From the NCBI GenBank assembly GCA_049314455.1, contig JBMOFC010000007.1, positions 631 through 64,630 of the forward strand: a DNA stretch of 64,000 nt, in the 5' to 3' direction. A model generated the notes under the pieces. That model made no database searches and was not told the DNA's origin. It worked only from the letters and a program-made list of their open reading frames with translations. The translations under genes were made by a program, and so were the position numbers. The stretch is from Chthoniobacterales bacterium. GTDB lineage: Bacteria > Verrucomicrobiota > Verrucomicrobiia > Chthoniobacterales > UBA6821. How positions within the stretch are numbered: position 1 is the stretch's first letter; every line of letters begins with the position of its first letter. Below are positions 728 through 50,543 of the stretch, piece after piece.

Positions 728-3673
728 CTAATAATTTCCTTGTTTAGGCATTCCAAAAAGTTTGAATTTCTTTTTTTTAGGTGGTGGCGTTGGTGTGGGC
801 TGTAGCTTTTTCTCAAGGCCTTTGGCCTCGGTACCCAGATCAGAAGATCCTCCCTCAATATTGCTTGCTTTTTCCATAGAAGTGTTTGAATCAATCACAA
901 TGGGCTGAATCATTACCACCAGTTCGGTACGCACCTTATTTTTCTGGGTATGACCTCCTAGTAGTGGTCCAATAATGGGAATTTTATTGACGTAAGGAAT
1001 CCCTTTTTCTTCATTATTTTTTTCATCCTGGATCAATCCCCCTAGGACAATAGTAGAACCACTAGGAATACGGACACTTGTGGTTAATTCTTGCGTGTTA
1101 ATGACAGGAGCATTGATTCCCGTCTTAGCTTCATCAAGAGTCGCCTGAGTATCGACCGTTTGATTTTGCTGGGCAATGATGAGGTTGACTTCCTTATCGG
1201 AATTAATCAAAGGAATGACCTCTAGTTTTAATAAAACATCTTGGTAGGTAATATTGGCTGTGATCGAGTTAGCGGTCTGACTAGATGTTCCTGTTGCACC
1301 AGCATTGACCAAGCTATTTAAGGTCTGAGACTGATACGGAATACGACGTCCGGAGAGAATGGTGGCCTTCTTGTTATTACTCGTGTAAACGGTTGGGCGC
1401 GCGATAGTTTTAAATTTTCCAGTGCTTTCTAAAAATTTAGCGTACATATCCACAGAACCACCGATAGAACCAAAAAGAGTCAATCCTCCTTGGCTATTAC
1501 TAACGGCATTATTAATACCTGCCGTTCGTGTTAAACTAGAGCTTCCAAGGCTATTGGTTCCAGCGGCACCAGGAAAAGTAGAATTGATGCCATTGAGCAG
1601 AGCAGCTCCTGCGGCTTTTCCGAGATCACCTCCAAAAGTATTGGCGAGGGTATTGAATCCGTCATAGTGAAAAAGATAACTAGCCCCATACTCCATTCCT
1701 TCTTCCAGCCTCATTTGACCAATAACAGCTGCCAAGTAGACTTGTTGTGGGCGACGATCCAAGAGGTCGATGATTTGACGTGCCTTGGCTTTGCTTTCAG
1801 GAGGTCCATAAACAATAATGCTATTAGCAGTAGGATCTGCCACGATGCTGGTGGACCCGACGATTGCTGATTGCGGAGGTGATTGTCTTTGGGATTCATT
1901 CAAGCGATCTGCATGGTTACCTCCTGCGTTGACTCCACTACTTCCTCCAATGCTGCTAGAAGATCCATCCATTGGGTTTTGAGAACCTAGGAGTCCTGAG
2001 GAGGTACTACTACTACCGCTGTTATTAAAAGGATTCTGAGGTGTTGCTTGTGGTTTTATTTGATTTTGTGTGGTGTCATCATCTTTGTTTTTGAGCATGT
2101 CGACGAGCACAGGAAAAACATCAGTTGCAGACATGTAGTTCAAAGGGCGTACGAGCGGTTCTTCCGGAGCTTGAGCCTTATCGAGATTGGCAATTAATTC
2201 GCGAACATAGCGGTAGTTTTCAGCACGTGTGACGACAAGAATGCGATTGGTCCGCTTATCAGCAATGAATTGAACCTTGCCACTAAAGACACGTTCATCA
2301 CCCGGATTAGAATTATCGGAAGCAGGTGGAATGGGTTGCTGAGGTTGATTATTTGGTGTATTGGGACCACCAGGCTGCCCTGAACCTCCTTTAGCTGGAG
2401 TGGGTGCTGGGGTGCTACTTTCTTTTCCAAAAATTTGATTTAATGTCTCCACTGTTTTTTCTGCATCGGCACGTTGCAGGAGGACGAATTCAGTAATGAT
2501 TTGTGAAGATTCATGATCAATGACTTTAAGGAGTGCTAATGCTTTGCGAATGATAGGAGTCTTATCGGTGATGACGATGGCACTTGTGTTGGGAACAGCA
2601 ACAAGTGAGCCAAAGGGATTGAGCTGCACAACACCTTGAAGAATGGTAATAGCCTCGGTGGTGCTTAAAAAATGGAGAGGTTGATAAAAACTCACCAGTT
2701 GGTCTCCGTCCGTCGGAAGTTCCGATTCTTCGAGGTAGAGTGGAAGACCTTCTGTACGAGGAGGGCGGCTTGGTCCAAGTACCTTCACTGTTTTTTCATC
2801 AACAGGAATCAGGACGTATCCGTTGAGCAACATGGAGCTTTCCATGACATTGATTGCCTCTTTTTTCGAAATAGGATCGGCGATCATGACCGAGAGTTCC
2901 GGTCCAGCAAGATTGGAATCTCGAATGATGCGTTTGCCTGTTAATTTTTCATACAGAGCAAGAATTTCCATGATCGAAGTATGAGGAAATTGCATGCTGA
3001 TTTTTTCATTCAGATTGATGGGTGTTGGAGAAGCTGTAGGAGATGTGGTAGTAGCAGGAGAAACGAGGTTCGTTGAAGATGAGTCCGATATTGGAACAAC
3101 TGCTGGAGTAACTGCTGGAGTAACTGTTGGAGCGGCTGTTGGAGTAACTGTTGGAGTAACTGTTGGAGAAGCGGTTGAAGCTGCCTGCTCAGCAGAGAGG
3201 TTGGGTTGAGGAGAAGCAGCAGGTTGTTGTAGAGTCTCAGGAGCTTGTTTCATCGCCTGAAATTTTGCTCGTGCAGCACGAAGAGCTGAAAGAGCCGTTG
3301 CAGGCAAGGGACTCGTTTCTTTTTTAAGTGGTAACGTAGAGGCTTCTAGCTGATGCGGTCTTGCCGAAGCAGATGGTTTAAGATCTTTGGAAGATTCTGT
3401 GATCTCTAAAGGAGAATTTGGAAGTGACAGCCCTTCGTGAGTAACGGTAGGAGTTGGTGTCGCTGAAGCTGATGGTGTCGGCAACGGCGTCGCTGGCGTT
3501 GTCAATGATAGTGGGACGTTTGTAGTAAGAAGAGGCGTTGCTTTGACAACGGGTGTGGCGCTTGACTCTGGTACGGTTATTGTGGTTCTTGCTACAAGAG
3601 TGCTCTCCTCTGATAGCGCTACGGAGAAAGAACACAAAGCTAGGAAAGTGATCAGAAAGAGACGAGGGTGCAT
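728..3673 (-). CDS. gspD: Type II secretion system secretin (GspD family) with long Thr/Pro/Ala/Ser-rich N-terminal extension
   Basis: 981-aa ORF with signal peptide MHPRLFLITFLALCSFSVALS. It has a C-terminal secretin domain (VRIPSGSTIVLGGLIQDEKNNEEKGIPYVNKIPIIGPLLGG...TELVVMIQPIVI) and N-domain-like segments (SIIVYGPPESKAKARQIIDLLD). It is the last gene of the gsp operon. Confidence 0.9.
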   Translation of the reverse strand: MHPRLFLITFLALCSFSVALSEESTLVARTTITVPESSATPVVKATPLLTTNVPLSLTTPATPLPTPSASATPTPTVTHEGLSLPNSPLEITESSKDLKPSASARPHQLEASTLPLKKETSPLPATALSALRAARAKFQAMKQAPETLQQPAASPQPNLSAEQAASTASPTVTPTVTPTAAPTVTPAVTPAVVPISDSSSTNLVSPATTTSPTASPTPINLNEKISMQFPHTSIMEILALYEKLTGKRIIRDSNLAGPELSVMIADPISKKEAINVMESSMLLNGYVLIPVDEKTVKVLGPSRPPRTEGLPLYLEESELPTDGDQLVSFYQPLHFLSTTEAITILQGVVQLNPFGSLVAVPNTSAIVITDKTPIIRKALALLKVIDHESSQIITEFVLLQRADAEKTVETLNQIFGKESSTPAPTPAKGGSGQPGGPNTPNNQPQQPIPPASDNSNPGDERVFSGKVQFIADKRTNRILVVTRAENYRYVRELIANLDKAQAPEEPLVRPLNYMSATDVFPVLVDMLKNKDDDTTQNQIKPQATPQNPFNNSGSSSTSSGLLGSQNPMDGSSSSIGGSSGVNAGGNHADRLNESQRQSPPQSAIVGSTSIVADPTANSIIVYGPPESKAKARQIIDLLDRRPQQVYLAAVIGQMRLEEGMEYGASYLFHYDGFNTLANTFGGDLGKAAGAALLNGINSTFPGAAGTNSLGSSSLTRTAGINNAVSNSQGGLTLFGSIGGSVDMYAKFLESTGKFKTIARPTVYTSNNKKATILSGRRIPYQSQTLNSLVNAGATGTSSQTANSITANITYQDVLLKLEVIPLINSDKEVNLIIAQQNQTVDTQATLDEAKTGINAPVINTQELTTSVRIPSGSTIVLGGLIQDEKNNEEKGIPYVNKIPIIGPLLGGHTQKNKVRTELVVMIQPIVIDSNTSMEKASNIEGGSSDLGTEAKGLEKKLQPTPTPPPKKKKFKLFGMPKQGNY
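3098..3181 (-). repeat. Seven tandem 12-bp units inside gspD encoding (V/A)TP(T/A) repeats
   Basis: Plus strand reads AACTGCTGGAGT AACTGCTGGAGT AACTGTTGGAGC GGCTGTTGGAGT AACTGTTGGAGT AACTGTTGGAGA AGCGGTTGAAGC. This translates on the minus strand to ...PTVTPTVTPTAAPTVTPAVTPAV... Confidence 0.85.
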
Positions 3674-4968: not shown

Positions 4969-6373
4969 ATCGAACGCTGTTTTTTCCTGCCAACTTCGGC
5001 TGGCTGCTTGTCCATTGATATTCTTGGAGATCTGGAGCGGTTTTAATGGACTCTAAGAAGTGATAAGCCTGAGAAACATCCGTTGCCTCGCCACTGATTT
5101 GCAAGCGTCCATCGATAGAAGCCAGTGAGATAAGACGAATTTTTTCACCATGAAGTTGACTAGCAACAGCGGCAAGAAGATCGAGTGCATAGGTCCTTGG
5201 GTCAATAGCAAAACGAAATTCTTGCCACTCAGCAAGATCGTGGTTGGCTTTTTCAATAGGAGCCGAAGCTCTGGTCAATTGATGTGAAAAACGGGTCGCT
5301 AGAGATTCCTTCAAAAGAAGATTTACAGCTCCTGAAAAAATGAGGAAGCAATAACCCATGAGTGCAAATGTCACGATTTTTTTGATCTGATCTCGTTTTG
5401 CTTGAAGGACTCTTTCGTGGCGCGCCTGCTCTGAAGGAAGGTCTAGGAGTGGTTTTGGGATTACTGGAGAGGGTATATCTACATGATGATCACAAGATTT
5501 TTCTGCGATACCAAGCTCGCGTTGAAGTAATTCACATTCTTTAGTTGAAAAAGGGCCAATCATGCGCACGCTGCGTGGCATGTGATCTAACACCGATTCT
5601 GCATGAAGATGAAGAGCCATCCGCTTGATCAGGCCGATTAAAAATGAATTCACCTCGGTTTCGCTGCTACCCGAGAACCACAAGCATTGATTTTTTTTGA
5701 TAAATGCAAAACAGATTTCACCCAGTTCATGCCATAACAGAAGGTCCGTATTTTCTGTTGGCAAGAGTCGTGCTGCAGCTTCAAAATGTTCCGCAGTCTT
5801 AAGGTAAGATGCGGTAGCCATAGAAGGTATTGCTGCCGGGGCTAATACCACCACCAAGGTGCGGTCATCATGAATTTCAAGGGTGATGATTTTCAATCCT
5901 TCACTCATTCCGCGTCTCAGTAGATGTTTGCTGGAAAGTTCTAGCATGACCAGTTCCTCGAGATTGCCTTGAGAGGCTACCCAAAGGGGAACTGCAATGA
6001 GGTCACGTGTTGGGACACCAATAATCCAATCTGTTTTTGAGGATGCGAGAGGAGGAGGGACTGCAGGCTCGAGCAAGATAGGACCACTATGGAGCTCAGC
6101 GGTTTCTTCTTTTTTCGAAGGCATTTTCCAAAGCTGCCATGCTCCCTCTTGAGTGCCTGGTCTTAAAAGAGTGAGTATATGGGACTTCTTTCGAAACTCT
6201 ATTGCTGATGTGAATGACGGCGTTGCTCCAGTGCTCGCCTGCCTTACCCCATCAGGCTTCGCAGTTTCTTTATCACGATCAGTATGAAGTATCCGGGCTA
6301 GTGATGGAATCTTCGCAAAAATCAACGTTACCTTTTCTAAAAGTGAGGTGAGGGGTGGAGGAATCTTACTCAT
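4922..6373 (-). CDS. GspL-like T2SS assembly protein; N-terminal ~60 aa partly repeat-derived
   Basis: 483 aa with a single TM (IVTFALMGYCFLIFSGAVNLLL) about 110 aa before the C-terminus, matching GspL topology. It has a 4-nt overlap with gspK-like. Residues ~30-55 (HTDRDKETAKPDGVRQASTGATPS) come from the repeat at 6230-6300. Confidence 0.45.
   Translation of the reverse strand: MSKIPPPLTSLLEKVTLIFAKIPSLARILHTDRDKETAKPDGVRQASTGATPSFTSAIEFRKKSHILTLLRPGTQEGAWQLWKMPSKKEETAELHSGPILLEPAVPPPLASSKTDWIIGVPTRDLIAVPLWVASQGNLEELVMLELSSKHLLRRGMSEGLKIITLEIHDDRTLVVVLAPAAIPSMATASYLKTAEHFEAAARLLPTENTDLLLWHELGEICFAFIKKNQCLWFSGSSETEVNSFLIGLIKRMALHLHAESVLDHMPRSVRMIGPFSTKECELLQRELGIAEKSCDHHVDIPSPVIPKPLLDLPSEQARHERVLQAKRDQIKKIVTFALMGYCFLIFSGAVNLLLKESLATRFSHQLTRASAPIEKANHDLAEWQEFRFAIDPRTYALDLLAAVASQLHGEKIRLISLASIDGRLQISGEATDVSQAYHFLESIKTAPDLQEYQWTSSQPKLAGKNSVRFETEGSLPHAKTSSE
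6230..6300. mobile_element. End fragment of the 33486-33742 MITE-like element, embedded in frame in the GspL-like ORF
   Basis: AGTGCTCGCCTGCCTTACCCCATCAGGCTTCGCAGTTTCTTTATCACGATCAGTATGAAGTATCCGGGCTA aligns by eye with 33675-33742. Its end matches the terminal repeat TAGCCCGGATATTTCATGCTGATC (33486-33509, reverse complement). Confidence 0.7.
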
Positions 6374-7431
6374 TGTTCTTGCCAGCTTAACATACTCCCA
6401 CCCTGTGAGTCTCCTATGATGACAACAATATGATGTGTGATGCCATGATAGATTCCTTTGCTATCGATGCGTCGAATATTGCCAGTGACTCCAAAATAGT
6501 TCAGTAACAGTTGTTCTTGGAGACCCGAGACTCCCATGAGTTTTGCTGCCTGGTTGATATCATTAAAAATCAAATCATCCTCTGTACCCGAGATTCCATC
6601 AGGACCAGCGCATAACTTTACAAAAGCTTCTGTCTGCTGTGGAGTTAATCCGAGCAGATCTATGAACATTTCCGGACTGCAATAATTGATGTTAATTTTT
6701 CCTGGATTGAACGTCGAAAAATAGTGTTCCCACTTAGGATTTGCCTTCACTACTGATGCGAAGCCAATGACCATCCCCATTTCACGAGCATGAACAAAGG
6801 GAGCATTGGGAGGATATCCTTCAAGGCCGTGCTTTTCATATTCAGCTTGCTTGGCTCCATGAGCAGAACGGAGCTCTGTTCGGCTTTGCCAATCATAGAG
6901 CCCGTCAATGGCAGTCTCCTGATCTTTTTGAGAAACACCCCATTTTTCAAACAGTCGCTGAAAAATAACACGATCTGATTTGGCTAACCAAGTATTCGGG
7001 TTGATAAAACCTGATTCGTTGTTGAGATGCACGGAAAAACTTTCTCCTTCTTTGTCTGTGGGATCACCTTGAGTTAAAGCAGGGTCATTCGGTCTGATAT
7101 TCGGATTCATGCCGATGGCCAGTCCGCTTAGTGCCAACTGACGTGCATGGAAAAGACGCTCTGCATGACTTTCTTCATCAAGCCAACTGCTGACACTTCC
7201 TGCAACTAAAATGATAAGTCCTGCTAAAAAAGCGATAGCCCAGAGTACCATGGGAAGTGCGAAGGCATTGCTTCGCAATGCTAGTTGTCGGTTGTCAGTT
7301 GTCAGTTGACAGCCTGAGCCATTGCTGCGCAGCTGTAGTTCGCACGTCATTCCCGCGGAGGCGGGAAGTGCAGTTCGAACGTCATTCTCGCGGAGGCGGG
7401 AATCGCAGTTGTTGCTAGCTCGTTGTGGCAT
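6370..7431 (-). CDS. gspK: Minor pseudopilin GspK-like protein
   Basis: Hydrophobic N-terminus AFALPMVLWAIAFLAGLIILVAG and a GspK-like helix-hairpin-helix region (YCSPEMFIDLLGLTPQQTEAFVKLCAGPDGISGTEDDLIFNDINQAAKLMGV). The ATG-ORF N-terminus (7279-7431) is made of repeats. An in-frame TTG at 7278 gives MRSNAFALP... (303 aa) and is the more plausible start. Confidence 0.6.
   Translation of the reverse strand: MPQRASNNCDSRLRENDVRTALPASAGMTCELQLRSNGSGCQLTTDNRQLALRSNAFALPMVLWAIAFLAGLIILVAGSVSSWLDEESHAERLFHARQLALSGLAIGMNPNIRPNDPALTQGDPTDKEGESFSVHLNNESGFINPNTWLAKSDRVIFQRLFEKWGVSQKDQETAIDGLYDWQSRTELRSAHGAKQAEYEKHGLEGYPPNAPFVHAREMGMVIGFASVVKANPKWEHYFSTFNPGKININYCSPEMFIDLLGLTPQQTEAFVKLCAGPDGISGTEDDLIFNDINQAAKLMGVSGLQEQLLLNYFGVTGNIRRIDSKGIYHGITHHIVVIIGDSQGGSMLSWQEQ
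7265..7312 (-). repeat. Pseudopilin leader module (17-nt hairpin + CAACTGACAAC repeats), copy at gspK
   Basis: Plus strand GCATTGCTTCGCAATGC + TAGTTGTCGGTTGTCAGTTGTCAGTTGACAG. The same 48-nt composite occurs at 8299-8346 and 9508-9555. Confidence 0.85.
7341..7410. repeat. Two tandem copies of the GC hairpin repeat (GTCATTCCCGCGGAGGCGGGAA type)
   Basis: CGCACGTCATTCCCGCGGAGGCGGGAAGTGCAGTT followed by CGAACGTCATTCTCGCGGAGGCGGGAATCGCAGTT. In the long gspK ORF these translate as ...DSRLRENDV...LPASAGMT... Confidence 0.85.
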
Positions 7432-7571
7432 TAGGAAATGTAATCTTGTTTTTTAGTAATGCAAATGGGAAGCAGATGAAAAAATGCTACCGAATATCTT
7501 TTGTGATTGCTGTCAAAAATAAATTTTTTGTGTCTTGATTAAACCCGCTGATTTAAAAGTGAAGTGCAACA

Positions 7572-8369
7572 CTATCTTCCCCGTAGAGGCATACCATTCA
7601 TCGGAATGTTCCTATTAGGAGGTGCGTTGCCAGAGGGATTCATGCTTGGAGGATTTGGAGTGCCAGTATTATTGTTAGGAGGAATCATTGGAACATAGCC
7701 TGATGTCCCGAGGCTGTGCTTAGTCACAGCAGGAACATAGAAAATGCTTTCAAGTGGCTCTGGAATACCTGCAACCTCCATCTCCAGACGGACTAATTGA
7801 GGTCTTGGAGAGCCACGAGGCCATTCATCTACCCATTCACCTTTATTAAAAAAACTCCAATGAGGTTTTTGAACGTTGGGAAGAAGTTTTATCCATGATG
7901 CATTTTGATAAAGATGATTCAGATCGGTGCCTTGAACATTTTTAGGAATACGAAGGATCGAGAAAGTTCTACTCCCATTACTATTTGGCTGTGCTGAAAG
8001 CGTTAAGGTTCCACCGGCAAGACTAGCAATTCCAAAGAGGCCTGTGGCATTTTCAAATGTAAGATCAGGAATCGTATTATTGCTATCATTGCTCAAGAAA
8101 ACAGCTCCATTGGCAGGTAAATTTAAAAAGGCATTGCGCGTGATTTGTAGGAATCCTGCTAACCGACGTAGTGTGAACTGTTCTACAATGGCTTCTTTTG
8201 TCGACTCGATCGCAGCCGAAGAAATAGAGTAAATGGCTCCAGCCAGTAGAACCATAATAGCCATGGCTAAGATGACTTCTAGTAACGTAAATGCAGAGCC
8301 ATCGCGTTGCGATGGCAGTTGTCGGTTGTCAGTTGTCAGTTGCCAGTTTTTGTCAGCTTGTTGTGCCAT
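7572..8369 (-). CDS. Minor pseudopilin GspJ-like protein with Pro/Asn-rich C-terminus
   Basis: Prepilin-type motif ...QRDGSA|FTLLEVILAMAIMVLLAG. At 265 aa it sits between the I-like and K-like genes. Its 26-aa leader includes the repeat-encoded QLTTDNRQL. Confidence 0.6.
   Translation of the reverse strand: MAQQADKNWQLTTDNRQLPSQRDGSAFTLLEVILAMAIMVLLAGAIYSISSAAIESTKEAIVEQFTLRRLAGFLQITRNAFLNLPANGAVFLSNDSNNTIPDLTFENATGLFGIASLAGGTLTLSAQPNSNGSRTFSILRIPKNVQGTDLNHLYQNASWIKLLPNVQKPHWSFFNKGEWVDEWPRGSPRPQLVRLEMEVAGIPEPLESIFYVPAVTKHSLGTSGYVPMIPPNNNTGTPNPPSMNPSGNAPPNRNIPMNGMPLRGR
8299..8346 (-). repeat. Pseudopilin leader module, copy at gspJ-like
   Basis: Plus strand CCATCGCGTTGCGATGG + CAGTTGTCGGTTGTCAGTTGTCAGTTGCCAG. 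Confidence 0.85.
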
Positions 8370-8475
8370 GAGAAAAGAAATATTATTTTTATGATGTAGG
8401 CTTACAACTCATAGAAAAAAGTATGGAATTTTTATTCGCTATTTTTGGCATTATTTGAACCGCTGTTAATTTAGT

Positions 8476-8508
8476 CTGACAACTGACAACTGGCTCTGCA
8501 AAGCAGAG
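8476..8508 (-). repeat. Inverted partner of the leader module plus GC hairpin, immediately after the gspI-like stop
   Basis: Plus strand CTGACAACTGACAACTGG followed by hairpin CTCTGCAAAGCAGAG. It is complementary to 8316-8346, with a ~130-nt spacer between. Confidence 0.8.
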
Positions 8509-8511
8509 GCC

Positions 8512-9108
8512 TCACTCAGGCCGGTAGAGCAGTATTTCTGCAGAGTCAGTTATCTTCTCATATTCGGAAGTAATCTTAAGACGATAAATGCCACGGATTT
8601 CGTTGCCGTGAACATCCGTTAGATCAAGCGGAGTGAGTGATTCTGTAAAGGTCACTCCATGATTCGTAAGCGTGCGATCTCCTGAAACGGGAGGATCTAC
8701 CAAGTTATAAGCAAGACGTGATTCCAGTGATAACCGTGAAAAAACACGCTCCCGTGTTTCAAGCACAGCCTTCACCATCGAATCAAGCGCCATCACCAAT
8801 CCTGCCACCGAAAACGCAAAAACAGCGAGGGCGATTAGGACTTCGAATAATGTAAACGCCTTAGAACCCTTTTTAAATGCTACTGAGGCGGCGCAGAGCT
8901 GCGTTGCCTCAGTGCTCGTGTCCTCATGTATTAGATATACACTGTGGGACTGCGCGCTGAGGGTGCCTTGCTCTGCATCCGCCTCAGCGCATTTAAAAAG
9001 GGTTCTGATTTTTGTAGCGAGGTATGTTGTGAAGATCGAAAAGAGCTGCGTTGCCTCAGTGCTTCCATCTTCCATTTTCCATCTTCTATCTTCTGAAAAA
9101 ACCTTCAT
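8512..9108 (-). CDS. Minor pseudopilin GspI-like protein with an ~86-aa repeat-built leader
   Basis: Prepilin-type motif KKGSKA|FTLFEVLIALAVFAFSVAG. Its ATG overlaps the gspH-like stop (ATGA). No ATG, GTG or TTG codon lies in frame between residue 12 and the cleavage motif. Confidence 0.6.
   Translation of the reverse strand: MKVFSEDRRWKMEDGSTEATQLFSIFTTYLATKIRTLFKCAEADAEQGTLSAQSHSVYLIHEDTSTEATQLCAASVAFKKGSKAFTLFEVLIALAVFAFSVAGLVMALDSMVKAVLETRERVFSRLSLESRLAYNLVDPPVSGDRTLTNHGVTFTESLTPLDLTDVHGNEIRGIYRLKITSEYEKITDSAEILLYRPE
8864..9005. mobile_element. MITE-like insertion inside the gspI-like leader region (in frame)
   Basis: 27-nt terminal inverted repeats GAACCCTTTTTAAATGCTACTGAGGCGG (8864-8891) and CCGCCTCAGCGCATTTAAAAAGGGTTC (8979-9005). 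The core ...GTCCTCATGTATTAGATATACACTGTGGGAC... resembles the CCTCGAGTATCTCTTATACACTGCGGGT module of the 47131/30058 elements. A perfect 22-nt direct repeat AGAGCTGCGTTGCCTCAGTGCT lies at 8895 and 9042, 147 bp apart. Confidence 0.65.
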
Positions 9109-9638
9109 TCTTCGTCGTGGGTGACCTGACCTGTAATAGGGTCAAACTTGATGATGACTGGTTCTCTTCCACCTATAATGCGTAAGGTGAGTGGATCACA
9201 GATTCCTTCGCTATTGAATTGCCAGAGTTCATCAGGAAGCGGTGGGCGAAATTTTTGATCGATGAGGCGTTTAAGTTCGATTTTCCATCCTTTGGGTAAA
9301 AAGGTTGGATCATCAAGAGAGATGAAGTGTGTTTCTCCCGCCAGAATGGCTTGAGACCTAGTTTTTGTAGCTAAGTCCTCAATGGATTGTGTTACTTCTT
9401 CTGCTTGATTATTTTTCCAAGCATCAGCCATGTAGGGAGCAGCCGCAATCATCAAGATGGCAATGAGGGCGAGGGCTATAAGGACTTCTAGTAAAGTGAA
9501 ACCGTGACCATTGCTACGCAATGGCAGTTGTCGGTTGTTAGTTGATAGTTGACAGTTATTATTAGCTTGGAGTGTTGTCAGAAAAGCAGCCCTATTTTTT
9601 AATAGCACTTTAAGGAAAAATTCTGTCTTTTTAATCAC
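9105..9638 (-). CDS. Minor pseudopilin GspH-like protein
   Basis: Prepilin-type motif SNGHG|FTLLEVLIALALIAILMIAAAP. The long ATG-ORF leader (46 aa) is repeat-derived. An in-frame TTG at 9521 would give the canonical leader MRSNGHG|F (139 aa). Confidence 0.6.
   Translation of the reverse strand: MIKKTEFFLKVLLKNRAAFLTTLQANNNCQLSTNNRQLPLRSNGHGFTLLEVLIALALIAILMIAAAPYMADAWKNNQAEEVTQSIEDLATKTRSQAILAGETHFISLDDPTFLPKGWKIELKRLIDQKFRPPLPDELWQFNSEGICDPLTLRIIGGREPVIIKFDPITGQVTHDEE
9508..9555 (-). repeat. Pseudopilin leader module, copy at gspH-like
   Basis: Plus strand CCATTGCTACGCAATGG + CAGTTGTCGGTTGTTAGTTGATAGTTGACAG. Confidence 0.85.
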
Positions 9639-9659
9639 ACGAATTGCGTTAACTTTTAT

Positions 9660-9705
9660 GACAACTGAAAACTGGCAACCGAAAACTGAGGCTGCGAAGC
9701 AGCCT
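9660..9705 (-). repeat. Inverted partner of the leader module plus GC hairpin, immediately after the gspG stop
   Basis: Plus strand GACAACTGAAAACTGGCAACCGAAAACTG followed by hairpin AGGCTGCGAAGCAGCCT. The gspG stop is at 9708-9710. Confidence 0.75.
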
Positions 9706-9707
9706 CT

Positions 9708-10151
9708 TCATCGTCCAATATTTCCTTCGCCTTCTTTGCCTTGGGGTCCGAGCGAGTAAAGATCGTAGCCATCGGGTCTATATTTTCCTGGATTACGATA
9801 AACATAGGGGTTACCCCAGGGATCAATAGGAACCGACTCCATTAATTTTTTCCAATGAATGGGACGAGGATCTGCTGAGGGAGGTTGGACTAAAGCGGCA
9901 AGGCCTTGTTCGGTTGTGGGCTTGCGGAAGTTGAGCATTTCATAAGTGCGCAGCTGCATCGAAATCGCTTGGATATCACTTGTGACGCGTTGTTCCTTGG
10001 CCACATCAATGTTACCAGCGAGTGAGTAAATAGCAGCTCCTACAAGAACAGAGATAATACCCAACACAAGCATGATTTCAAAAAGGGTATACCCAGCCTC
10101 GCGGAGCGATTTTTTGGGGGATCTAAGGGAGAGAGACATAAAACAGGACAT
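9708..10151 (-). CDS. gspG: Major pseudopilin GspG
   Basis: 147 aa with LREAG|YTLFEIMLVLGIISVLVGAAIY and the GspG hallmark ...VPIDPWGNPYVYRNPGKYRPDGYDLYSLGPQGKEG. Confidence 0.9.
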   Translation of the reverse strand: MSCFMSLSLRSPKKSLREAGYTLFEIMLVLGIISVLVGAAIYSLAGNIDVAKEQRVTSDIQAISMQLRTYEMLNFRKPTTEQGLAALVQPPSADPRPIHWKKLMESVPIDPWGNPYVYRNPGKYRPDGYDLYSLGPQGKEGEGNIGR

Positions 10152-14918: not shown

Positions 14919-15917
14919 ATGAAAAAATTCTTCTTTCTCTTTTCATTAATCACGTTATTAGGATGTTGTTCTTCAAGCGTAGCAAACACTCAGCCTGTCT
15001 TAATTGCCGATCCGAGAGTGCTCTCGATTCCTATTTGTGACAATCAGGAGCCGCTCGTGGATCTTAGAAAAGAAGGCGGAATTGCCATTGGACCTTCCCC
15101 TGAAATTCCCAACAACACCGACTATACGTTTGTGAGAAAAAGTGTGGCTGAAAAATTACTCCAGGCACAAAAAAAATTACCACCTGGTCTTCAATTTCAA
15201 CTCTATGAAGGATATCGCAGCTTAGCTTTGCAAAAAAAACTTTTTGATACGTTCTTTGCGAAAATAAAAAAGGAACATCCTTCCTGGAGTTACAAACAAC
15301 AATTTTTAGAAACAACGCATTTGGTCTCTCCCGTTATCAATCTCGATGCGAGTCATAATATCCCGCCTCATTCTACGGGTGCAGCCATTGATGTTTATTT
15401 AGTCGATACCGCAGGAAAGTCAGTACCGATGGGCATCCATCCTAAAGATTGGATGCAGGATCTTGATGGCTCTCTCTCGTTGCCCCATTCTCAAAAAATT
15501 TCCGCTGAGGCGCGTCACTACCGAGCCATCATGAGTCGTGCTTTAAAGTCGGTAGGATTTGTTAATCTTGATACGGAATATTGGCATTGGTCTTATGGTG
15601 ATCGTTACTGGGCCTTCAAGAACCTGGATTCAAAGTCTGCTGAGACTGCGAATAAGAGTGTCGCGCCAAACGTCATCCCCGCAGAGGCGGGGATCGTCTC
15701 CTCGAGTACCTCTTGTACACTGCGGGACGGCGCGCCGTCGACTACTTGTTCTTCATCAGCCTTGAGTACTTTGAATGCAGGTTCTAAGAAAAAGAAACCA
15801 TGTGCCATTTATGGGACTACGTCTAAAAAGAGTGCGGCAGCAAATAACGCTAAGCCAGGAAAGCGTTGCGATGATTTCAAACCAAATAAGAGTTATCACA
15901 ATGATAGCTCACTTTGA
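14919..15917 (+). CDS. D-Ala-D-Ala dipeptidase (VanX/DdpX, peptidase M15D-like) lipoprotein with ~95-aa repeat-derived C-terminal tail
   Basis: Lipobox LLGC. It carries YEGYRSLALQKKLF, HSTGAAIDVYL and EYWHWSYGDRYWA, the zinc and catalytic motifs of the VanX family. The ORF continues through the element at 15629-15776. Confidence 0.75.
   Translation: MKKFFFLFSLITLLGCCSSSVANTQPVLIADPRVLSIPICDNQEPLVDLRKEGGIAIGPSPEIPNNTDYTFVRKSVAEKLLQAQKKLPPGLQFQLYEGYRSLALQKKLFDTFFAKIKKEHPSWSYKQQFLETTHLVSPVINLDASHNIPPHSTGAAIDVYLVDTAGKSVPMGIHPKDWMQDLDGSLSLPHSQKISAEARHYRAIMSRALKSVGFVNLDTEYWHWSYGDRYWAFKNLDSKSAETANKSVAPNVIPAEAGIVSSSTSCTLRDGAPSTTCSSSALSTLNAGSKKKKPCAIYGTTSKKSAAANNAKPGKRCDDFKPNKSYHNDSSL
15629..15776 (+). 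mobile_element. ~148-bp MITE-like element, in frame within the VanX-like ORF
   Basis: ...CAAAGTCTGCTGAGACTGCGA...GCGCCAAACGTCATCCCCGCAGAGGCGGGGATCGTCTCCTCGAGTACCTCTTGTACACTGCGGGACGGCGCGCC...TACTTTGAA. A homologous copy lies at 31978-32125. It translates to SKSAETANKSVAPNVIPAEAGIVSSSTSCTLRDGAPSTTCSSSALSTLNAGS. Confidence 0.8.
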
Positions 15918-18538: not shown

Positions 18539-18765
18539 AAGAAATTCACAGCGATGAAACAACAAAGAATTTAACAGAGATGGAAGGGATAAAAGGGATA
18601 AAAAAATGATAGAAATACAAAGCACGCATCTCGTTTTTAAAATTTCAACGCTAGCAGCAAATTTGAAAATCGATGTTTTAAATCTTTCAGTCATCCCTTT
18701 TATCCCTTCCATCCCTGTTCAATCTTATGAGTTTTTAATTTTTTATCTCTGTGAATTCTTTCTTC
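18538..18765 (+). repeat. Junction inverted repeat thiC -> next gene (purine-rich arm, 93-nt spacer, pyrimidine-rich arm)
   Basis: The inner arms are perfect 21-mers: GATGGAAGGGATAAAAGGGAT (18579-18599) and ATCCCTTTTATCCCTTCCATC (18693-18713). The outer arms AGAAATTCACAGCGAT and ATCTCTGTGAATTCT are near-complementary. The left arm starts at the thiC stop, and the right arm contains the GTG start of 18751. Confidence 0.8.
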
Positions 18766-26202: not shown

Positions 26203-26214
26203 CACTTCCCTTCC

Positions 26215-26238
26215 GTCATCCCCGCGGAGGCGGGGATC
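26215..26238. repeat. Solo GC hairpin repeat GTCATCCCCGCGGAGGCGGGGATC
   Basis: Same hairpin as at 7341-7410, 15671-15694, 32060-32085, 47179-47204 and 55150-55175 (approximate coordinates). Confidence 0.85.
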
Positions 26239-26325
26239 CAGGATGGTGTTCATTTTGATGAGAGTAGGAACGTTACAAAACCCTAACCTCTCTCTTGCTT
26301 CCTAACACTGTTACTGAGCGGATAT

Positions 26326-29464: not shown

Positions 29465-29672
29465 AGGCTATAGGCTTGAGGCTGGAGGCTGGAGGCTGGG
29501 GAAGAGAAATAAAAAAAACATAACAACTGATGCAGAATCGTGACTACTAACGTTCCGTTGATAGCGAGAAGAAAGGGATTACGTGAAATCGTAAATAGAA
29601 GATTCAAAAAAGTGTATCTTTGTTTTCAAGTAATTTTAGTCTTTAGCCTCCAGCCTCCAGCCTCTAGCCTAT
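29465..29672. repeat. Inverted repeat with GGCTGGAGG-type arms filling the asnB/queD divergent region
   Basis: ATAGGCTTGAGGCTGGAGGCTGGAGGCT (29470-29498) pairs with TAGCCTCCAGCCTCCAGCCTCTAGCCTAT (29644-29672), about 27 of 29 complementary. The arms end 9 nt from the asnB ATG and 8 nt from the queD ATG. Confidence 0.85.
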
Positions 29673-30057: not shown

Positions 30058-30166
30058 TGCTACCGCTGAGGCGCAGGACGGAGTATCTGTTCCTGTAAAC
30101 GGGTACAGGACGGCGTCACTGCGGTACTCGCGTCCTCGAGTATCTCTTATACACTGCGGGTTTGCG
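30058..30166. mobile_element. Partial repeat element related to the 47131 MITE family
   Basis: AAATGCTACCGCTGAGGCGCAGG...GTTCCTGTAAACGGG...CACTGCGGTACTCGCGTCCTCGAGTATCTCTTATACACTGCGGGT. It shares modules with 8864-9005, 47161-47240 and 59821-59880. Confidence 0.7.
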
Positions 30167-30167
30167 T

Positions 30168-31205
30168 TCAGTTGCGTTTCTTCATCTCAGCAATCTGATG
30201 ATCCCGCTGTTCGATGATTTGGGAGAGATCGGCTGCAAGCTTAAATTTCTCCATAACTGTTTTGTTCAGTTCAATAATCGTTTTGAGTTGTTCGGTGTTG
30301 GTTTGGTGAAGCTCTTGGTTTGTCTTCATTAAGTTGTGAACGCGGTGGTTGTTCTGTTCTTCCAGGACAAGTAGGGATTCTAAAGAAAAGAACTGTTCTT
30401 TCCATTTTTTAAAAGAGGGTTGTAGGTCTTCAAAGCTGATTCGATCAGTGGCAACGGCAAGGAGTTTTTCATAAATTTCCAAAGCAAAGGTATGGCAGAA
30501 ACTATGGTGGGGCGTATTCTCTTTGCTTCCGTGAAAATGACGTAACGAGGAGTCGATGAAATCGCAGCTATACGATTGGAGTACGTTAGGATCAAGAGGA
30601 AGTTCGAATGTCTTAGCAAGACGTTCCATCTGATACTTCGGATTTTTTAAAAGCTCGTCGTAATCGACGATATGTCGCTTCTCTCCTTGGGAATGTTCGA
30701 GGCAGCTCAGTAGGTAGGAGATCCAAATCCACAATGATTTCTCTCGATGCTGATTTTTAAATTGTTCTTGGCAGGCAGCCACATTTAAAGGATTTCTGAG
30801 TGCTATCACAAAAGAGACCTCCACTTCACGCTCCTGAAGAACTTTTTTCCAAAAAGGAAGCAAGAGTGAAAAACGAGGGTCTTTGATTCCAAAGAGAGGA
30901 TACTGCTTACTTTTTTTACATAATAATTCCGAAGCTTGTTCAAAATAACCTTTCTGACACAAGAGCATGGTCTCTTCCTCCGTCAGTGGTAGAATCCGCC
31001 GCAGACGATCGTCAAAAAAATCAAGCATTTCTAAATTAAGCTTATGAAAATCGGAATCTTCCCAATACCCTTTTTCGTTAAAAATATTGGGTGCAATGAG
31101 AGCATGTCCTAAGGAGGCTCCCATCGTTTCAAGACCTTTGGTGATAGCGCTTGTTCCACTGCGATGGACACCAATGACGATGATAACTCTATTTCTTTTC
31201 ATCAA
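30168..31205 (-). CDS. Sulfotransferase-family protein with C-terminal coiled coil (paralogue 1)
   Basis: 5'-PSB-like VIIVIGVHRSGTSAITKGL and 3'-PB-like IALRNPLNVAAC. The C-terminal ~80 aa show a heptad-like pattern (LVLEEQNNHRVHNLMKTNQELHQTNTEQLKTIIELNK...). Confidence 0.65.
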   Translation of the reverse strand: MMKRNRVIIVIGVHRSGTSAITKGLETMGASLGHALIAPNIFNEKGYWEDSDFHKLNLEMLDFFDDRLRRILPLTEEETMLLCQKGYFEQASELLCKKSKQYPLFGIKDPRFSLLLPFWKKVLQEREVEVSFVIALRNPLNVAACQEQFKNQHREKSLWIWISYLLSCLEHSQGEKRHIVDYDELLKNPKYQMERLAKTFELPLDPNVLQSYSCDFIDSSLRHFHGSKENTPHHSFCHTFALEIYEKLLAVATDRISFEDLQPSFKKWKEQFFSLESLLVLEEQNNHRVHNLMKTNQELHQTNTEQLKTIIELNKTVMEKFKLAADLSQIIEQRDHQIAEMKKRN

Positions 31206-31230
31206 TTTGAATCAGTAATCAGACGATACT

Positions 31231-32457
31231 CTAACTTATTTTTAACTCGAGGTGTTTTGCATCATGATCCTTTTGCTTTTGGAGCAGAGCATTGATTCGA
31301 ATCTCACGTTGATGGATCTCTTGGCAATAGTGAGCGATAGAATATGTTTTTTGGTTAATCTCCTTGTGAAGTTCGTGAATCGATGTGTCAAGTTGTTGAA
31401 TTGTGCTTTTCAGTTTGTGAATTGTGGCGTTGTTTTTTTCCGCTAAGACTAAAAGAGATTGAGCTTCTACATACTCTTTTTTCCATTGTTGGAGAGGTTG
31501 CTTCAATTTCTGAAAATCGATTTTATCATGGGCCACTCTGAGAAGATACGTGTACATCTCAGTTGCAAGGTTTTGATAAAAAGGAAGGGATACTGAGACC
31601 TCTTTTTTTTCATGAAAATGGCGCAGTGTGGGATCAACATAACGATGGCAATAAGATGCCAACAGGTCTTGATCTATGTTTAGCTTGAGTTTCTGAGCGA
31701 TCCTTTCCATCTGATGTTTTGGATCGTTGAGCAGCGTATCATAGTCTACCAAAAGACGCTGGTGCCCCTCGGAATGTTCGAGACAGCTTAAAAGGTGCGA
31801 TATCCAAATCCAAAACGATTTTTCCATATGCTGTTTTTGAGCGGCGGCGACACTCCAAGGGTTTCGTAAAGCGATGATAAAAGAAGCTTGGATGTTGCAT
31901 TGCTGAAACACTTTTTTCCAAAAAGGAAGTAAGATTGAAAAACGAGGATCTTTGATGCCGAGAGGCTGAGAGCCTGTTTTCAAAGTCGCTGCGACTGATG
32001 AGGGAGAAGGAGCCTCCGGCGCGCAGTCCCGGAGTGTACAAGAAGTGCTCGATGGAGCGATCCCCGTTTCCGCGAGGATGACGTTCGGCGCGACGCAGTC
32101 CATCGCAGTCGCAGTAGACTTTGAAAATAGGTTCTTATTTTTTGGAAATTTTTCGAGTAGCAACTGAGATGCTTTTGTGAGGAACCCCTCCTTGGATAGG
32201 ATCTCTACTTCTTCTTCGGTGAGGGGAATAATCTCTCGAAGATGAGCTCCAAAAAAAGAGAGTATTTCCAAATTCAGTGTGTGTAATTCTGGATCTTCCC
32301 AAAGAAGTCGTTGCTCAAAAGGATCTTGAAATGTCAGCGCAGGACCTAGTGAGATCCCCATGGTTTCAAGCCCTTTTGTTAAGACGCTTGTGCCACTGTG
32401 GGTGGTGCCAGTCACTAAGATAAGATGTTTATGACGCTTCATGTTTATCTTGCTCAC
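31231..32457 (-). CDS. Sulfotransferase-family protein with coiled coil (paralogue 2), carrying a ~50-aa repeat insertion in the catalytic domain
   Basis: LILVTGTTHSGTSVLTKGL and ALRNPWSVAAAQ. The insertion ...SKSTATAMDCVAPNVILAETGIAPSSTSCTLRDCAPEAPSPSSVAATLKTGS... is absent from the paralogues. A likely alternative start is MKRHKH at 32442. Confidence 0.65.
   Translation of the reverse strand: MSKINMKRHKHLILVTGTTHSGTSVLTKGLETMGISLGPALTFQDPFEQRLLWEDPELHTLNLEILSFFGAHLREIIPLTEEEVEILSKEGFLTKASQLLLEKFPKNKNLFSKSTATAMDCVAPNVILAETGIAPSSTSCTLRDCAPEAPSPSSVAATLKTGSQPLGIKDPRFSILLPFWKKVFQQCNIQASFIIALRNPWSVAAAQKQHMEKSFWIWISHLLSCLEHSEGHQRLLVDYDTLLNDPKHQMERIAQKLKLNIDQDLLASYCHRYVDPTLRHFHEKKEVSVSLPFYQNLATEMYTYLLRVAHDKIDFQKLKQPLQQWKKEYVEAQSLLVLAEKNNATIHKLKSTIQQLDTSIHELHKEINQKTYSIAHYCQEIHQREIRINALLQKQKDHDAKHLELKIS
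31978..32125 (-). mobile_element. ~148-bp MITE-like element, in frame within sulfotransferase paralogue 2
   Basis: Gene-sense ends are TTCAAAGTCTACTGCGACTG and CAGTCGCAGCGACTTTGAAAA (~20-nt terminal inverted repeat). The core is homologous to 15629-15776 and includes the GC hairpin. Confidence 0.8.
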
Positions 32458-33466
32458 GTTGTAGAAAAGCTAGTTGAAGATTGCGTTGATGTAGGATGTG
32501 ACAGAGACCAGCGATCGAATGCGAACTTTTATTTGTTGTCTTATTAAGCTGACTCACTGTTTTTCTACGCTCCATCATCATCTGTTCGAGTTGCTGAATC
32601 GTGAAGTTATTTTTTTCTGTTAAGACTAAAAGAGAAATAGCTTTTGAAAATTGTTGTTTCCACTTTTTTAAAGGGATGTGAGCAGCATGAAATGGCGTTT
32701 GTCCCTTTGCAATAGGAAGGAGCGTCTCATAAACTTCCATGACAAATTGCTGATGGAAGCTGCGCGTATGAGGAGATGAATTTTCTTTCCGAAAATGACA
32801 CAAAGAGGAATCAATAAAATTATGGCAATAGGTTTATAGTGCTTTGGGTTGAAGGGTGAGTTTAAAAGCCTCAGCGATCCGTTGCATTTGATGTTCCGGA
32901 TGTTTAAGAAGCTCGCTGTAATCTACTAAAATACGTTCATGCATCTCCAAATGTTCCAGGCAGCTCAAAAGATAGGAGATATACATCCAAAGAGAGAGCT
33001 CTTCATGTTCTGCGTGACAATGAGGTTTATGAGAAGCAGTAACGCTTGAGGGATCCCTTAAGGCGATGACACAGGAAAAACGAATATGACATTTCTGAAA
33101 AACTTTTTTCCAAAACGGGAGTAGCAGAGAGCACTTGGGATCTTTGAATCCAACAAGATTTGAAGTGGAGGTTTTTTCATGCAAGAGGTTGCAAGCTTGG
33201 CTAAAAAAACCTTGCTGTGATAACAACGAGATCTCTTCCTCCGTCACAAGAAGGATTAGTCGGAGGCGCTCCCCAAGAGTATCTAGTGCGCTATCGGTAA
33301 AGTTGTGAAATTCTAAATTTTCCCAATAATCTCTAAAAGGATTTGTTGGAGTGAATGAGTCACCCAAAAAAACTCCCATGGTTTCAAGCCCCTTTGTTAA
33401 AGCACTTGTCCCACTTCGATACATTCCAAGAATAAGAATGACGCGTTTGTTATTTTTCAGCATCAC
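32429..33466 (-). pseudogene. Sulfotransferase paralogue 3 interrupted by a single in-frame TAA
   Basis: ORFs 32834-33466 and 32429-32803 are in the same frame (1038 nt = 346 codons). They read ...LQPKAL*TYCHNFIDSSLCHF..., where paralogue 4 has ...LQPKALQTYCHDFIDTMLCHF (CAA to TAA). Confidence 0.8.
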
Positions 33467-33485
33467 GTTTTGCGTGCTCTTGCGT

Positions 33486-33742
33486 TAGCCCGGATATTTC
33501 ATGCTGATCTATTGTGAAAGCCGGGAAGCCTTATGGATGCTGCGTTGGGCTCATGTTTTGACTTGGGTAACACCAGTGCTCGGGAGAGCCTGGGGCAGAC
33601 TGCCTTGAGGCAGCCAGAAGGGCGAGCCGAGCAGGTGCGAGCGAGTCAATATGTGCGCTACAGTCCGGTGCCAAAGTGCTCGTCTGCTTTATCCCATCAG
33701 CCTTCGCAGCTTCCTCATCACGATCAGCATGAAATGTCTGAG
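33486..33742. mobile_element. ~257-bp MITE-like element supplying the C-terminal ~70 aa of sulfotransferase paralogue 4
   Basis: Terminal inverted repeats are TAGCCCGGATATTTCATGCTGATC (33486-33509) and GATCAGCATGAAATGTCTGAG (33722-33742). Its right part is homologous to 6230-6300. The paralogues end where the element begins. Confidence 0.7.
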
Positions 33743-37135: not shown

Positions 37136-37306
37136 TAAACCTAAAAACGTGAATGGGAACAGAAAATCTGACGCAATATACGTGGTCTCAACTTGCTTTT
37201 TCAAATCGCTTACGCACCATCCAGGTCCGCTGCACGCTTTTAAAAACCAACCTTAGACCAAGTCCTTACCCCATATTTCCCATTTCGATTCACGTTTTTA
37301 GGTTAA
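37136..37306. repeat. Inverted repeat (~24-30-nt arms, ~118-nt spacer), MITE-like
   Basis: TAAACCTAAAAACGTGAATGGGAA (37136-37159) pairs with TTCCCATTTCGATTCACGTTTTTAGGTTAA (37278-37306). The ATTCACGTTTTAGG string recurs at ~46005-46020. Confidence 0.7.
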
Positions 37307-37787: not shown

Positions 37788-38330
37788 ATGCGCCTCCTCT
37801 CGATCGATCCTTCCCTACGTGGCACTGGGTTTGCAATTTTAGAAGAGCATGATACCAAAATTCGATGTTTGGAATATGGAGTCATTAAAAATCCTCCGAA
37901 GTGGAGTGTGGCGACGTGTCTCTTGTCTATTCATGATCAATTGCTCACTGTGGTTAACGAGCATCAGCCAGAGGTAGTCGTTTTAGAAAGTGTCATCTAT
38001 GTTCAAAGTTATGCCACAGCTATTGTCCTAGGAGCTGCTCGGGGAGTAGTTTTGCTGCTTGCAGCACAAAAAGGGTTACCGATTCATGAATATCCTCCGA
38101 AGCGTGTGAAGCAGGCTGTGGTGGGGCATGGAGGAGCAGTGAAAAATCAAGTCGCTTTTATGGTGCGAGCACTTTTGGGGTTAACAGAAACTCCTTCCAG
38201 TGATGCTGCTGATGCCATGGCCATTGGACTCACCCACCTACGTGCCGCTTCAACGCCTTTACCCAAAAAAAGAAAATCAAATACGGCCTCTTGGAAAAAA
38301 TTTGTGGAAGGAAATAGGGGGCAGAAATAG
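37788..38330 (+). CDS. ruvC: Holliday junction resolvase RuvC
   Basis: MRLLSIDPSLRGTGFAILEE... and DAADAMAIGLTH catalytic motifs. Start is placed at ATG 37788. Confidence 0.88.
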   Translation: MRLLSIDPSLRGTGFAILEEHDTKIRCLEYGVIKNPPKWSVATCLLSIHDQLLTVVNEHQPEVVVLESVIYVQSYATAIVLGAARGVVLLLAAQKGLPIHEYPPKRVKQAVVGHGGAVKNQVAFMVRALLGLTETPSSDAADAMAIGLTHLRAASTPLPKKRKSNTASWKKFVEGNRGQK

Positions 38331-50523: not shown

Positions 50524-50543
50524 TTCAGTCATCTTCCATCCCT

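Follow-up and report, generated by a model that had tools for sequence, protein, structure and literature searches.

Palindromic repeats that enter protein-coding genes in frame have been described in several bacterial groups. The Rickettsia palindromic elements (RPEs), multi-copy palindromic repeats of about 100-150 bp, lie in frame in many unrelated and apparently functional genes, encode a conserved peptide in one frame and give inserts compatible with the host fold (PMC10969869, PMC3733652). A survey of repetitive extragenic palindromes (REPs) likewise placed some of them inside open reading frames (ORFs), with an enrichment in genes for repair; in the verrucomicrobium Opitutus terrae, both uvrA genes contain such REPs (Di Nocera et al. 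2013, PMC3733652). The CGTC class of REPs includes Neisseria dRS3 and R. conorii RPE-6 and has no known dedicated transposase, and the same survey reported no CGTC REPs in Verrucomicrobia (PMC3733652). ERIC, Coxiella QMITE1, pneumococcal BOX, Anabaena MITEs and Neisseria Correia/NEMIS are bacterial MITEs (miniature transposable elements with inverted repeats) that make in-frame fusions (PMC10969869, PMC5896051). Here, a 64,000-nucleotide stretch of contig JBMOFC010000007.1 (GCA_049314455.1), referred to as the window, was analysed, in which one palindromic element was found in frame both in an M15/VanX-like peptidase gene and in a sulfotransferase gene. A sequence-only reading of the window had guessed a genome of the Planctomycetes-Verrucomicrobia-Chlamydiae (PVC) type and had likened the element to RPEs; the guess was right, as the source is a Chthoniobacterales (Verrucomicrobiota) metagenome-assembled genome (MAG), and the likeness holds in that one element sits in frame in two unrelated intact genes, with insertion proven in both by insert-free orthologues, insert-free paralogues and empty sites.

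The copies in the peptidase gene (copy A) and in the sulfotransferase gene (copy B) were confirmed as real, far beyond chance (Table 1). The two aligned at about 80% identity after the copy B region was reverse-complemented, and 129 of 171 positions were identical in an ungapped, codon-aligned comparison. A hidden Markov model (HMM) built from both recovered them with nhmmer at E = 3.7e-58 and 1.2e-56 along with weaker relatives elsewhere in the window, and a 19-nt motif common to both had no match in 100 shuffles. The bounds first assigned to them, 15629-15776 and 31978-32125 (~148 bp), proved too narrow. The terminal inverted repeats (TIRs) of ~20 nt described at that stage were present but extend 9 nt further outward, running GAACCTnnnTTCAAAGTC...GACTTTGAAnnCAGGyTC, and the ends read GAACCT.../...AGGyTC with three TNA-type bases on each flank. 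With its 3-nt target-site duplication (TSD) each copy amounts to 168 nt or exactly 56 codons; the length estimated by eye, about 147-150 bp, was an underestimate. As had been proposed, both copies have one orientation and one frame relative to their respective hosts, with translated inserts KNLDSKSAETANKSVAPNVIPAEAGIVSSSTSCTLRDGAPSTTCSSSALSTLNAGS and KNLFSKSTATAMDCVAPNVILAETGIAPSSTSCTLRDCAPEAPSPSSVAATLKTGS and predicted host-insert junction peptides such as YWAFKNLDSK and LNAGSKKKKPCAIYG. Copy A folded as a single long hairpin (DNA, -41.4 kcal/mol, z = -6.25) and the RNA fold of copy B was at -66.3 kcal/mol (z = -4.47). An assembly artefact was rejected since the flanks of each insert form one gene, the junctions have target duplications and the empty sites match precisely.

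Insertion A is a clean internal insertion. Five orthologues of the host protein (MFZ4115557.1, M15 family metallopeptidase) with 80-86% identity and lengths of 251-263 aa lacked exactly the 56 insert residues. The empty DNA sites in two of the related loci (L099 and L102) read ..TTTAAGAAAAAG.. (GGGCyTTTAAGAAAAAG) and the filled site reads GCCTTCAA / GAACC...GGTTC / TAA / GAAAAAG, with the left TAA duplicate later changed by a synonymous TTT>TTC substitution in a Phe codon. The ancestral C-terminus, KKKKPCAIYGT, is back in frame after the insert and only ~24 further C-terminal residues form an unrelated extension, so that the proposal of an ORF extended by ~95 aa by the element was wrong. The dN/dS of the inserted gene relative to its closest orthologue was 0.10, as compared to 0.107 for two insert-free orthologues; the host gene is still under purifying constraint. 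In an AlphaFold2 (AF2) model based on 119 sequences the core had a predicted local distance difference test (pLDDT) score >90, insert residues 257-289 were <50 and the resumed C-terminal strand was at 85, while an earlier run with 10 sequences had been uninformative (pLDDT 46). A fold search with this model gave VanX 1R44 as the best match in the Protein Data Bank (PDB; E = 2.7e-8) and a PDB sequence search with the protein gave no match. The structure modelling that the sequence-only reading had suggested therefore returned a low-pLDDT insert, probably a disordered loop, beside a confidently predicted VanX-like core. Outside its own clade, the named matches of the peptidase were mostly from Legionella and Fluoribacter with one Coxiellaceae MAG (60-67% identity), which hints at gene exchange or a common lifestyle with amoeba-associated bacteria.

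Copy B sits in a loop that varies among the sulfotransferase paralogues, directly ahead of the conserved GIKDPRF motif. The three tandem paralogues were without the 56 residues, as had been noted from the window alone, and insertion B is also clean. The closest homologues of paralogue 2 in a 5.8-billion-protein collection were 340-370 aa as compared to 403 aa for the window's own protein, the length expected without the insert, in a comparison made by length with the insert-site residues unaligned. Four tandem sulfotransferase paralogues occupy 30168-34757, of which paralogue 3 is split, probably by a frameshift, into ORFs 32834-33466 and 32429-32803.

Further members of the family were obtained by a core-pattern scan of species-representative genomes, in which five related MAGs gave real loci (JAIEQL01, JAIEQF01, JAPLTJ01, WBXG01, JAIPKF01) and the other matches were chance matches in unrelated phyla. 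Iterated nhmmer searches of the window and 38 loci, 349 kb in all, returned 57 matches across the window and the loci of these MAGs. The element occurs in at least five related MAGs of Chthoniobacterales/Verrucomicrobia. In its basic form the unit measures 141 nt and has the ends GAG/GAA...CTC/TTC; a 3-bp TNA target duplication brings this to 144 nt or 48 codons. Element lengths ranged from 141 to 165 nt and reached 245 nt where modules were nested, and no copy contained a transposase gene. The arms are complementary over most of their length (14-16 of 16 terminal positions in most copies), hairpins of the whole length folded with z between -4.5 and -6.3, and the core is asymmetric and strongly conserved (..GGTGCTCGCGTCCTCGAGTAT....ATACACTGCGGGTCTG..). 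Three subfamilies were distinguished by their ends: GAGGGTGTCTTGAAAAG; GAACCnnTTnAAAnTCTACTG, which includes copies A and B and a third window copy, copy C; and GAGCATTTTAAAAA, which includes the window copies at 47.1, 55.1 and 59.8 kb.

Around 18 near-identical 141-nt copies were present in a single MAG (MAG149). Perfect direct 3-bp flanks were found on 13 of the 18 GAGGGTG-subfamily copies of 141-142 nt in the loci of this MAG and also on copies in uvrA and in a gene for an F5/8 type C domain protein, while a nineteenth copy of the subfamily (L009 from MAG122) was flanked by TTA/TAA. The target duplications seen were TTA, TAA, TGA, TCA and ATA; the direct, non-inverted orientation of these flank repeats identifies them as duplications distinct from the inverted repeat. 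An intergenic site that was filled in one MAG was empty in another. Near-identical copies with direct 3-bp flanks are the signature of recent transposition, and the complementary ends, the 3-bp TSD and the filled and empty sites together indicate a MITE-like foldback transposon. Size (<300 bp), lack of a transposase gene, TIRs, TSD and presence/absence polymorphism all agree with a MITE, and the element is a non-autonomous MITE-like foldback element that is clade-specific to uncultured Chthoniobacterales.

Canonical Harbinger elements have 3-bp TSDs, and the Harbinger and ISL2EU superfamilies have been analysed together with the prokaryotic IS5 family (PMC12730594). The present element is like the IS5 family (IS1031 group) and the PIF/Harbinger-Tourist MITEs in its 3-bp TSD but differs in that no transposase gene or full-length insertion sequence (IS) with its ends was found in the ~349 kb. 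In ISfinder, the IS1031 group is characterized by a TNA/TWA target preference and GAG termini. From the TSD and termini we infer a derivation from IS5/PIF-Harbinger, whereby a DDE transposase of this type would be supplied in trans and would make 3-bp staggered cuts at TNA targets to give the duplications observed. Alternatively, copies could be mobilised as single-stranded hairpins, either by a REP-associated tyrosine transposase (RAYT) or IS200-IS605-type tyrosine (HUH) transposase or through copying templated by the hairpin. Such a route would fit with the conservation of secondary structure and not of terminal sequence between subfamilies, with the CGTC-class REP nested in some copies and with the lack of a DDE partner in the ~349 kb. 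IS200/IS605-type transposition leaves no target duplication, however, and given the perfect direct 3-bp TNA duplications around most young copies and around the uvrA and F5/8 copies, and the lack of any known dedicated transposase for CGTC REPs, this route was considered quite unlikely. An apparent TIR match at 19650 in the window was rejected as a chance match.

Copies A and B exceed the 141-nt unit by 24 nt, which correspond to a CGTCATCCCCGC-AGAG-GCGGGGAT hairpin. REPs of type CGTC-1 are defined by a CGTC tag, an 8-bp stem starting with AT, a 4-nt loop and a CCA tail (PMC3733652), and the nested hairpin fits this definition as a CGTC-1-type REP. The CGTC tag was found at 15671, 26214, 32083 (minus strand), 7345 and 7380, and the hairpin was also present in the 47-kb copy with a degenerate tag (CATC) at 47179. 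A solo REP at 26214-26240 reads ATCCCCGC / GGAG / GCGGGGAT / CCA, and the nested copies have a different tail. The earlier description of the element as containing the GC hairpin is therefore right for copies A and B, but the hairpin is a separate nested repeat that also occurs alone. A metagenome scan with a pattern spanning the MITE-REP junction gave one real locus (L111) and 11 chance matches in high-GC genomes. Chance occurrences of the junction motif GTCGCGCCGAACGTCATCC(Y)CGC are found repeatedly in such genomes (metagenome loci L103-L110 and L112-L114), where it would read VAPNVI(L/P) in the element frame, a caution for pattern-based searches.

Seven of the 44 near-full-length copies were wholly inside long stop-free ORFs, the others being intergenic or overlapping short ORFs only, and no copy among the 44 visibly split a gene with stops. 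Genic copies in all frames with frequent stops, the pattern of simple gene disruption, were thus not seen in this sample. In-frame residence in genes is a general trait of the family and not confined to copies A and B. Forward in-ORF copies were read in one frame (ST.A..VAPV...SS..TL...APE) and comprised copies A and B, a copy in a 477-aa ORF (L083) and a copy in a PDDEXK_2 gene (L051). Reverse in-ORF copies, also in one frame (AQ[TS][RH]SVY), comprised copy C in a pseudopilin gene and the copies in L023 and L007. L023 is uvrA, in which a 141+3-nt insert with TSD TAA was found in place of an 11-residue loop of the UvrB-binding domain, and the remainder of the inserted UvrA scored 933 bits against solved UvrA structures. 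The protein encoded in L007 is 803 aa long and contains an F5/8 type C domain; the TSD is TGA. In the minor pseudopilin gene, copy C is preceded by a translationally coupled ATG (9108) and followed by the N-methylation motif (N_methyl, residues 80-104), and no in-frame start codon was present between copy C and this motif. If the pseudopilin is made, copy C would therefore belong to a leader that prepilin peptidase would remove. A remnant in feoB has the same subfamily and frame as copies A and B and is an in-frame deletion scar; the MAG149 orthologue (L040) was without these 15 residues.

When 1.84 billion representative proteins were searched exhaustively with an HMM of the A/B peptide, 14 matches were returned, three of them REP-only matches in other bacteria and 11 with the element peptide. 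A word-indexed search with the two 56-aa peptides had given a false negative, the host protein (P0001) being present in that database. Those element-peptide proteins with a source name were all from Chthoniobacterales/Verrucomicrobia MAGs. Hosts included UppP/BacA with both catalytic motifs intact, a GT2 glycosyltransferase, several hypothetical proteins and two AddB-like PD-(D/E)XK nucleases (P0134, 925 aa; P0123, 321 aa), one of which has as many as three element copies or remnants in frame. Two of the proteins with the element peptide, MFZ4115858.1 and MFZ4116002.1, fall in the accession block of the window's proteins and are very probably from its MAG. The AddB-like nuclease and uvrA hosts recall the published finding that REPs inside genes are enriched among those for DNA repair. 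In another of the 11, a 561-aa metagenome protein (P0133), the element bridges an N-terminal apolipoprotein N-acyltransferase (LNT_N) domain and a complete S8 subtilase domain; either the element mediated a gene fusion or the assembly is chimeric at the repeat.

The inserted genes could be in decay, that is, pseudogenes or redundant paralogues with short-lived open frames. The sulfotransferase is one of four tandem paralogues, one of them already split, the PDDEXK_2 host is minus ~26 conserved residues at the insertion and the pseudopilin leader is abnormally long. Against this, the M15 dN/dS of 0.10, which also bears on the pseudogene possibility raised in the sequence-only reading, was as for the insert-free orthologues, and the hosts uvrA and uppP are housekeeping genes, present as single copies, in which every motif is intact. 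The inserts are also old (copies A and B differ at ~25% of positions and have mutated TSDs), yet ORFs of 332, 408 and >795 codons remain open, and no sampled copy interrupts a gene with stops. Gene decay was therefore considered highly improbable.

The insertions with their TSDs, a multi-copy family with recent copies, preserved reading frames and constraint on a host gene were all observed. They are best explained, and in our view likely explained, by transposition and a selection filter through which only insertions in tolerant loops that preserve the frame and are free of stops would persist. Both 144 (141+3) and 168 (165+3) are divisible by three, so that the reading frame after an insertion is in every case unchanged, and subfamilies of 137-140 nt were not represented among the verified in-gene copies. 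One forward frame of the element contains no stops, nor, in some subfamilies, does one reverse frame, and young intergenic copies were already open in one or two forward frames. The frame common to the genic copies thus follows from stop-codon content and selection without a need for targeted insertion. In-phase insertions in tolerant places, here surface loops, termini and cleaved leaders, would be translated as a Ser/Thr/Ala/Pro-rich and probably disordered loop of ~48-56 residues, and purifying selection would remove disruptive insertions.

It is conceivable that the insert is instead an exapted peptide module that has been retained by selection, for example as a flexible linker, as a signal for modification or targeting or as a regulatory loop. 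Every forward in-ORF copy has the one frame, 15 or more different proteins contain the motif ST.A..VAP[VN]...SS[ST]..TL[RS]..AP, conservation of the element core is unusually strong and one AddB-like protein has three copies. Differences between copies A and B were nevertheless distributed over codon positions 1, 2 and 3 as 15/10/17 with no third-position excess, and their amino-acid identity (63%) was below their nucleotide identity. In addition, the hosts are functionally unrelated, the insertion positions are arbitrary loops or termini, the frame is intrinsically open in young intergenic copies too, the insert was modelled as disordered and the feoB element has decayed in frame to a 15-residue scar. 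Exaptation is accordingly very unlikely, and the insert peptide is most likely a neutral passenger and not a functional module.

The element might also be removed before the protein matures, through RNA excision at the hairpin or protein splicing, as the predicted transcript hairpin is very stable and its pairing is kept by compensatory changes. There was no Rfam match, introns included, at gathering score or E up to 1, no intein motifs were found and no NCBIfam family matched the insert peptides. The strict absence of stops and the multiples of three would be unneeded if the element were excised, and we know of no bacterial mechanism that religates mRNA after hairpin cleavage. Removal was thus judged extremely improbable. 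On the same Rfam (E up to 1) and NCBIfam results a structured RNA, an intron and an intein were rejected as identities for the element.

Several points weigh against the explanation by transposition and a selection filter. Conservation is stronger in the central core than at the termini, and the arms covary between subfamilies, with double changes in 9 of 22 consensus pairs and pairing kept deep into the arms. A purely selfish MITE needs neither, and a structural constraint on the DNA or at the level of RNA could be at work. Neither TIR matching nor a search for multi-copy segments >=300 bp brought up an autonomous IS with such ends in the ~349 kb. The PDDEXK_2 (Rpn-like) case combines the element with the loss of ~26 conserved residues, with the frame open (L051:5976-6944 as compared to L026:167-1099), while copy C measures 142+3 nt and shares its leader region with a second element fragment. 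The related loci were picked by the element-core pattern in 8-kb blocks, and about seven in-gene copies in 44 total is hence no genome-wide census. Translation of the inserts is itself deduced from reading frames. A more far-reaching but unlikely reading would be that the family is adapted to life inside genes and acts as a lineage-wide generator of new surface loops for essential proteins (UvrA, UppP, AddB-like, FeoB, M15 peptidase). In that event the length in multiples of three, the stop-free and disorder-prone frame and a core steadier than the transposase-binding ends would be adaptations at the level of the element, and the core or peptide might itself be functional, for instance as an RNA structure that influences translation of the host mRNA or as a common peptide signal.

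Relative to the described systems, the element is a new family in a new lineage with an already known behaviour (RPEs, intragenic REPs, MITEs). The sequence-only reading had regarded in-frame insertion as established in Rickettsia, which is so, although it is not unique to that genus as in-frame REP and MITE insertions have been published elsewhere (PMC3733652, PMC10969869). It had also considered the element to be different from RPEs, and no sequence membership in RPE families was found. NCBIfam includes RPE domain models, and seven insert peptides searched against NCBIfam with E up to 10 matched no family. The RPEs belong to the Alphaproteobacteria (Rickettsia) whereas the present element is from Verrucomicrobiota, has the 3-bp TNA duplications and young intergenic burst of classical MITE transposition and holds a separate nested REP; it is not an RPE member. 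The likeness to the intragenic GTAG/CGTC REPs (including Neisseria dRS3 and R. conorii RPE-4 and RPE-6) is in the nested hairpin, which fits CGTC-1, and in the insertion into uvrA. The 141-nt carrier, in contrast, is neither a REP nor a REP dimer, having long inverted arms, a unique core and a TSD, and here the REP rides inside a MITE.

The bacterial MITEs named at the outset are likewise small, TIR-bounded, TSD-flanked, non-coding multi-copy hairpin formers that are occasionally in frame in genes. Their sequences appear unrelated to the present element, from which they were set apart without direct comparison; the share of copies in conserved genes appears high in the present element and its unit plus TSD is a multiple of three. 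The Correia element has a TA target duplication, unlike the 3-bp TNA found here. For Coxiella QMITE2 the TSD is 7-9 bp (PMC10969869), again different from 3-bp TNA.

In-frame colonisation of genes is best documented in Rickettsia, where it is viewed as an oddity of reduced intracellular genomes, and the present family provides an independent second case. Young copies with intact TSDs, old genic copies and decayed scars form a natural series of proteins gaining and then trimming loops, and suggest a recipe for tolerance of multiple-of-three length, an open frame and a disordered peptide. Such inserts inflate or confuse annotation and homology clustering in MAGs, where the inserted proteins studied here formed singleton clusters, and they can seed chimeric assemblies or gene fusions.

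Table 1. Element copies, nested repeats and host genes in the window (nt positions; strand relative to the window)
Feature	Position	Strand	Remarks
Host gene 1, M15 D-Ala-D-Ala dipeptidase (VanX-like)	14919-15917	+	332 aa, intact; Pfam PF01427/PF02557
Copy A, palindromic MITE-like element	15620-15784	+	165 nt, GAACC-end subfamily; in frame in M15/VanX-like gene
Left target-site duplicate of copy A	15617-15619	+	now CAA, ancestrally TAA
Right target-site duplicate of copy A	15785-15787	+	TAA
Nested CGTC-1-type REP in copy A	15671-15694	+	CGTC + ATCCCCGC / AGAG / GCGGGGAT, translated IPAEAGI
Host gene 2, sulfotransferase paralogue 2	31231-32457	-	408 aa; Pfam Sulfotransfer_1/3, paralogue alignment
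Copy B	31970-32134	-	165 nt; inside sulfotransferase paralogue 2
Flanks of copy B	32135-32137; 31967-31969		TAA; TCA
Nested CGTC-type REP in copy B	32060-32083	-	2 mismatches to pattern
Copy C	8864-9005	+	142 nt, without REP; read on opposite strand in pseudopilin gene 8512-9108 (-)
feoB remnant, element 5' end	61013-61059	-	45 nt (15 codons), in frame in feoB (60558-62717, -), giving KNLSSNSTNAAKNHI
Intergenic composite copy	47131-47373	+	GAGCATTTTAAAA ends; carries REP and a further ~85-nt GC-rich nested module
Intergenic composite copy	55100-55345	+	same subfamily as 47131 copy; just downstream of stop of gene 55374-57566 (-)
Truncated copy	59794-59880	+	5' half only, intergenic
Truncated copy	30094-30186	+	core only; between queD-like gene and sulfotransferase paralogue 1 (30168-31205, -), overlapping final codons and stop of the latter
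Two solo CGTC-type REPs	7345-7368; 7380-7403	+	upstream of ORF 6370-7431 (-) or in its annotated N-terminus
Solo canonical CGTC-1 REP	26214-26237	+	CGTC, 8-bp stem starting AT, loop GGAG, tail CCA

Other repeats were observed in the window. The ~85-nt GC-rich module (47255-47345 and 55215-55320) is nested at one position in the two composite copies and has small hairpins of its own. Sulfotransferase paralogue 4 (33531-34757, minus strand) has a C-terminal extension of ~70 residues, within which a related 35-nt piece lies at 33581-33615, and this second repeat type may also supply coding sequence. Three genes of the pseudopilin operon (6370-10151, minus strand) have a common leader repeat (7255-7312, 8289-8346, 9498-9555) in which the heptamer GTTGTCA is present three times and which reads (C)QLTTDNRQL just upstream of the N-methylation motif. 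The prepilin leaders of this operon are unusually long and repetitive. Other unrelated palindromes of 100-200 nt were located at 18569-18723, 29465-29672 (and 42248-42279), 37138-37304, 38323-38428, 46841-46993 and 50364-50535, some with arms of short tandem motifs such as AGGCTGG repeats, and may be further foldback/MITE families or bidirectional terminators. A tandem repeat with a 12-nt period and ~9 copies of a CTGGAGTAACTG-like unit was present at 3079-3186.

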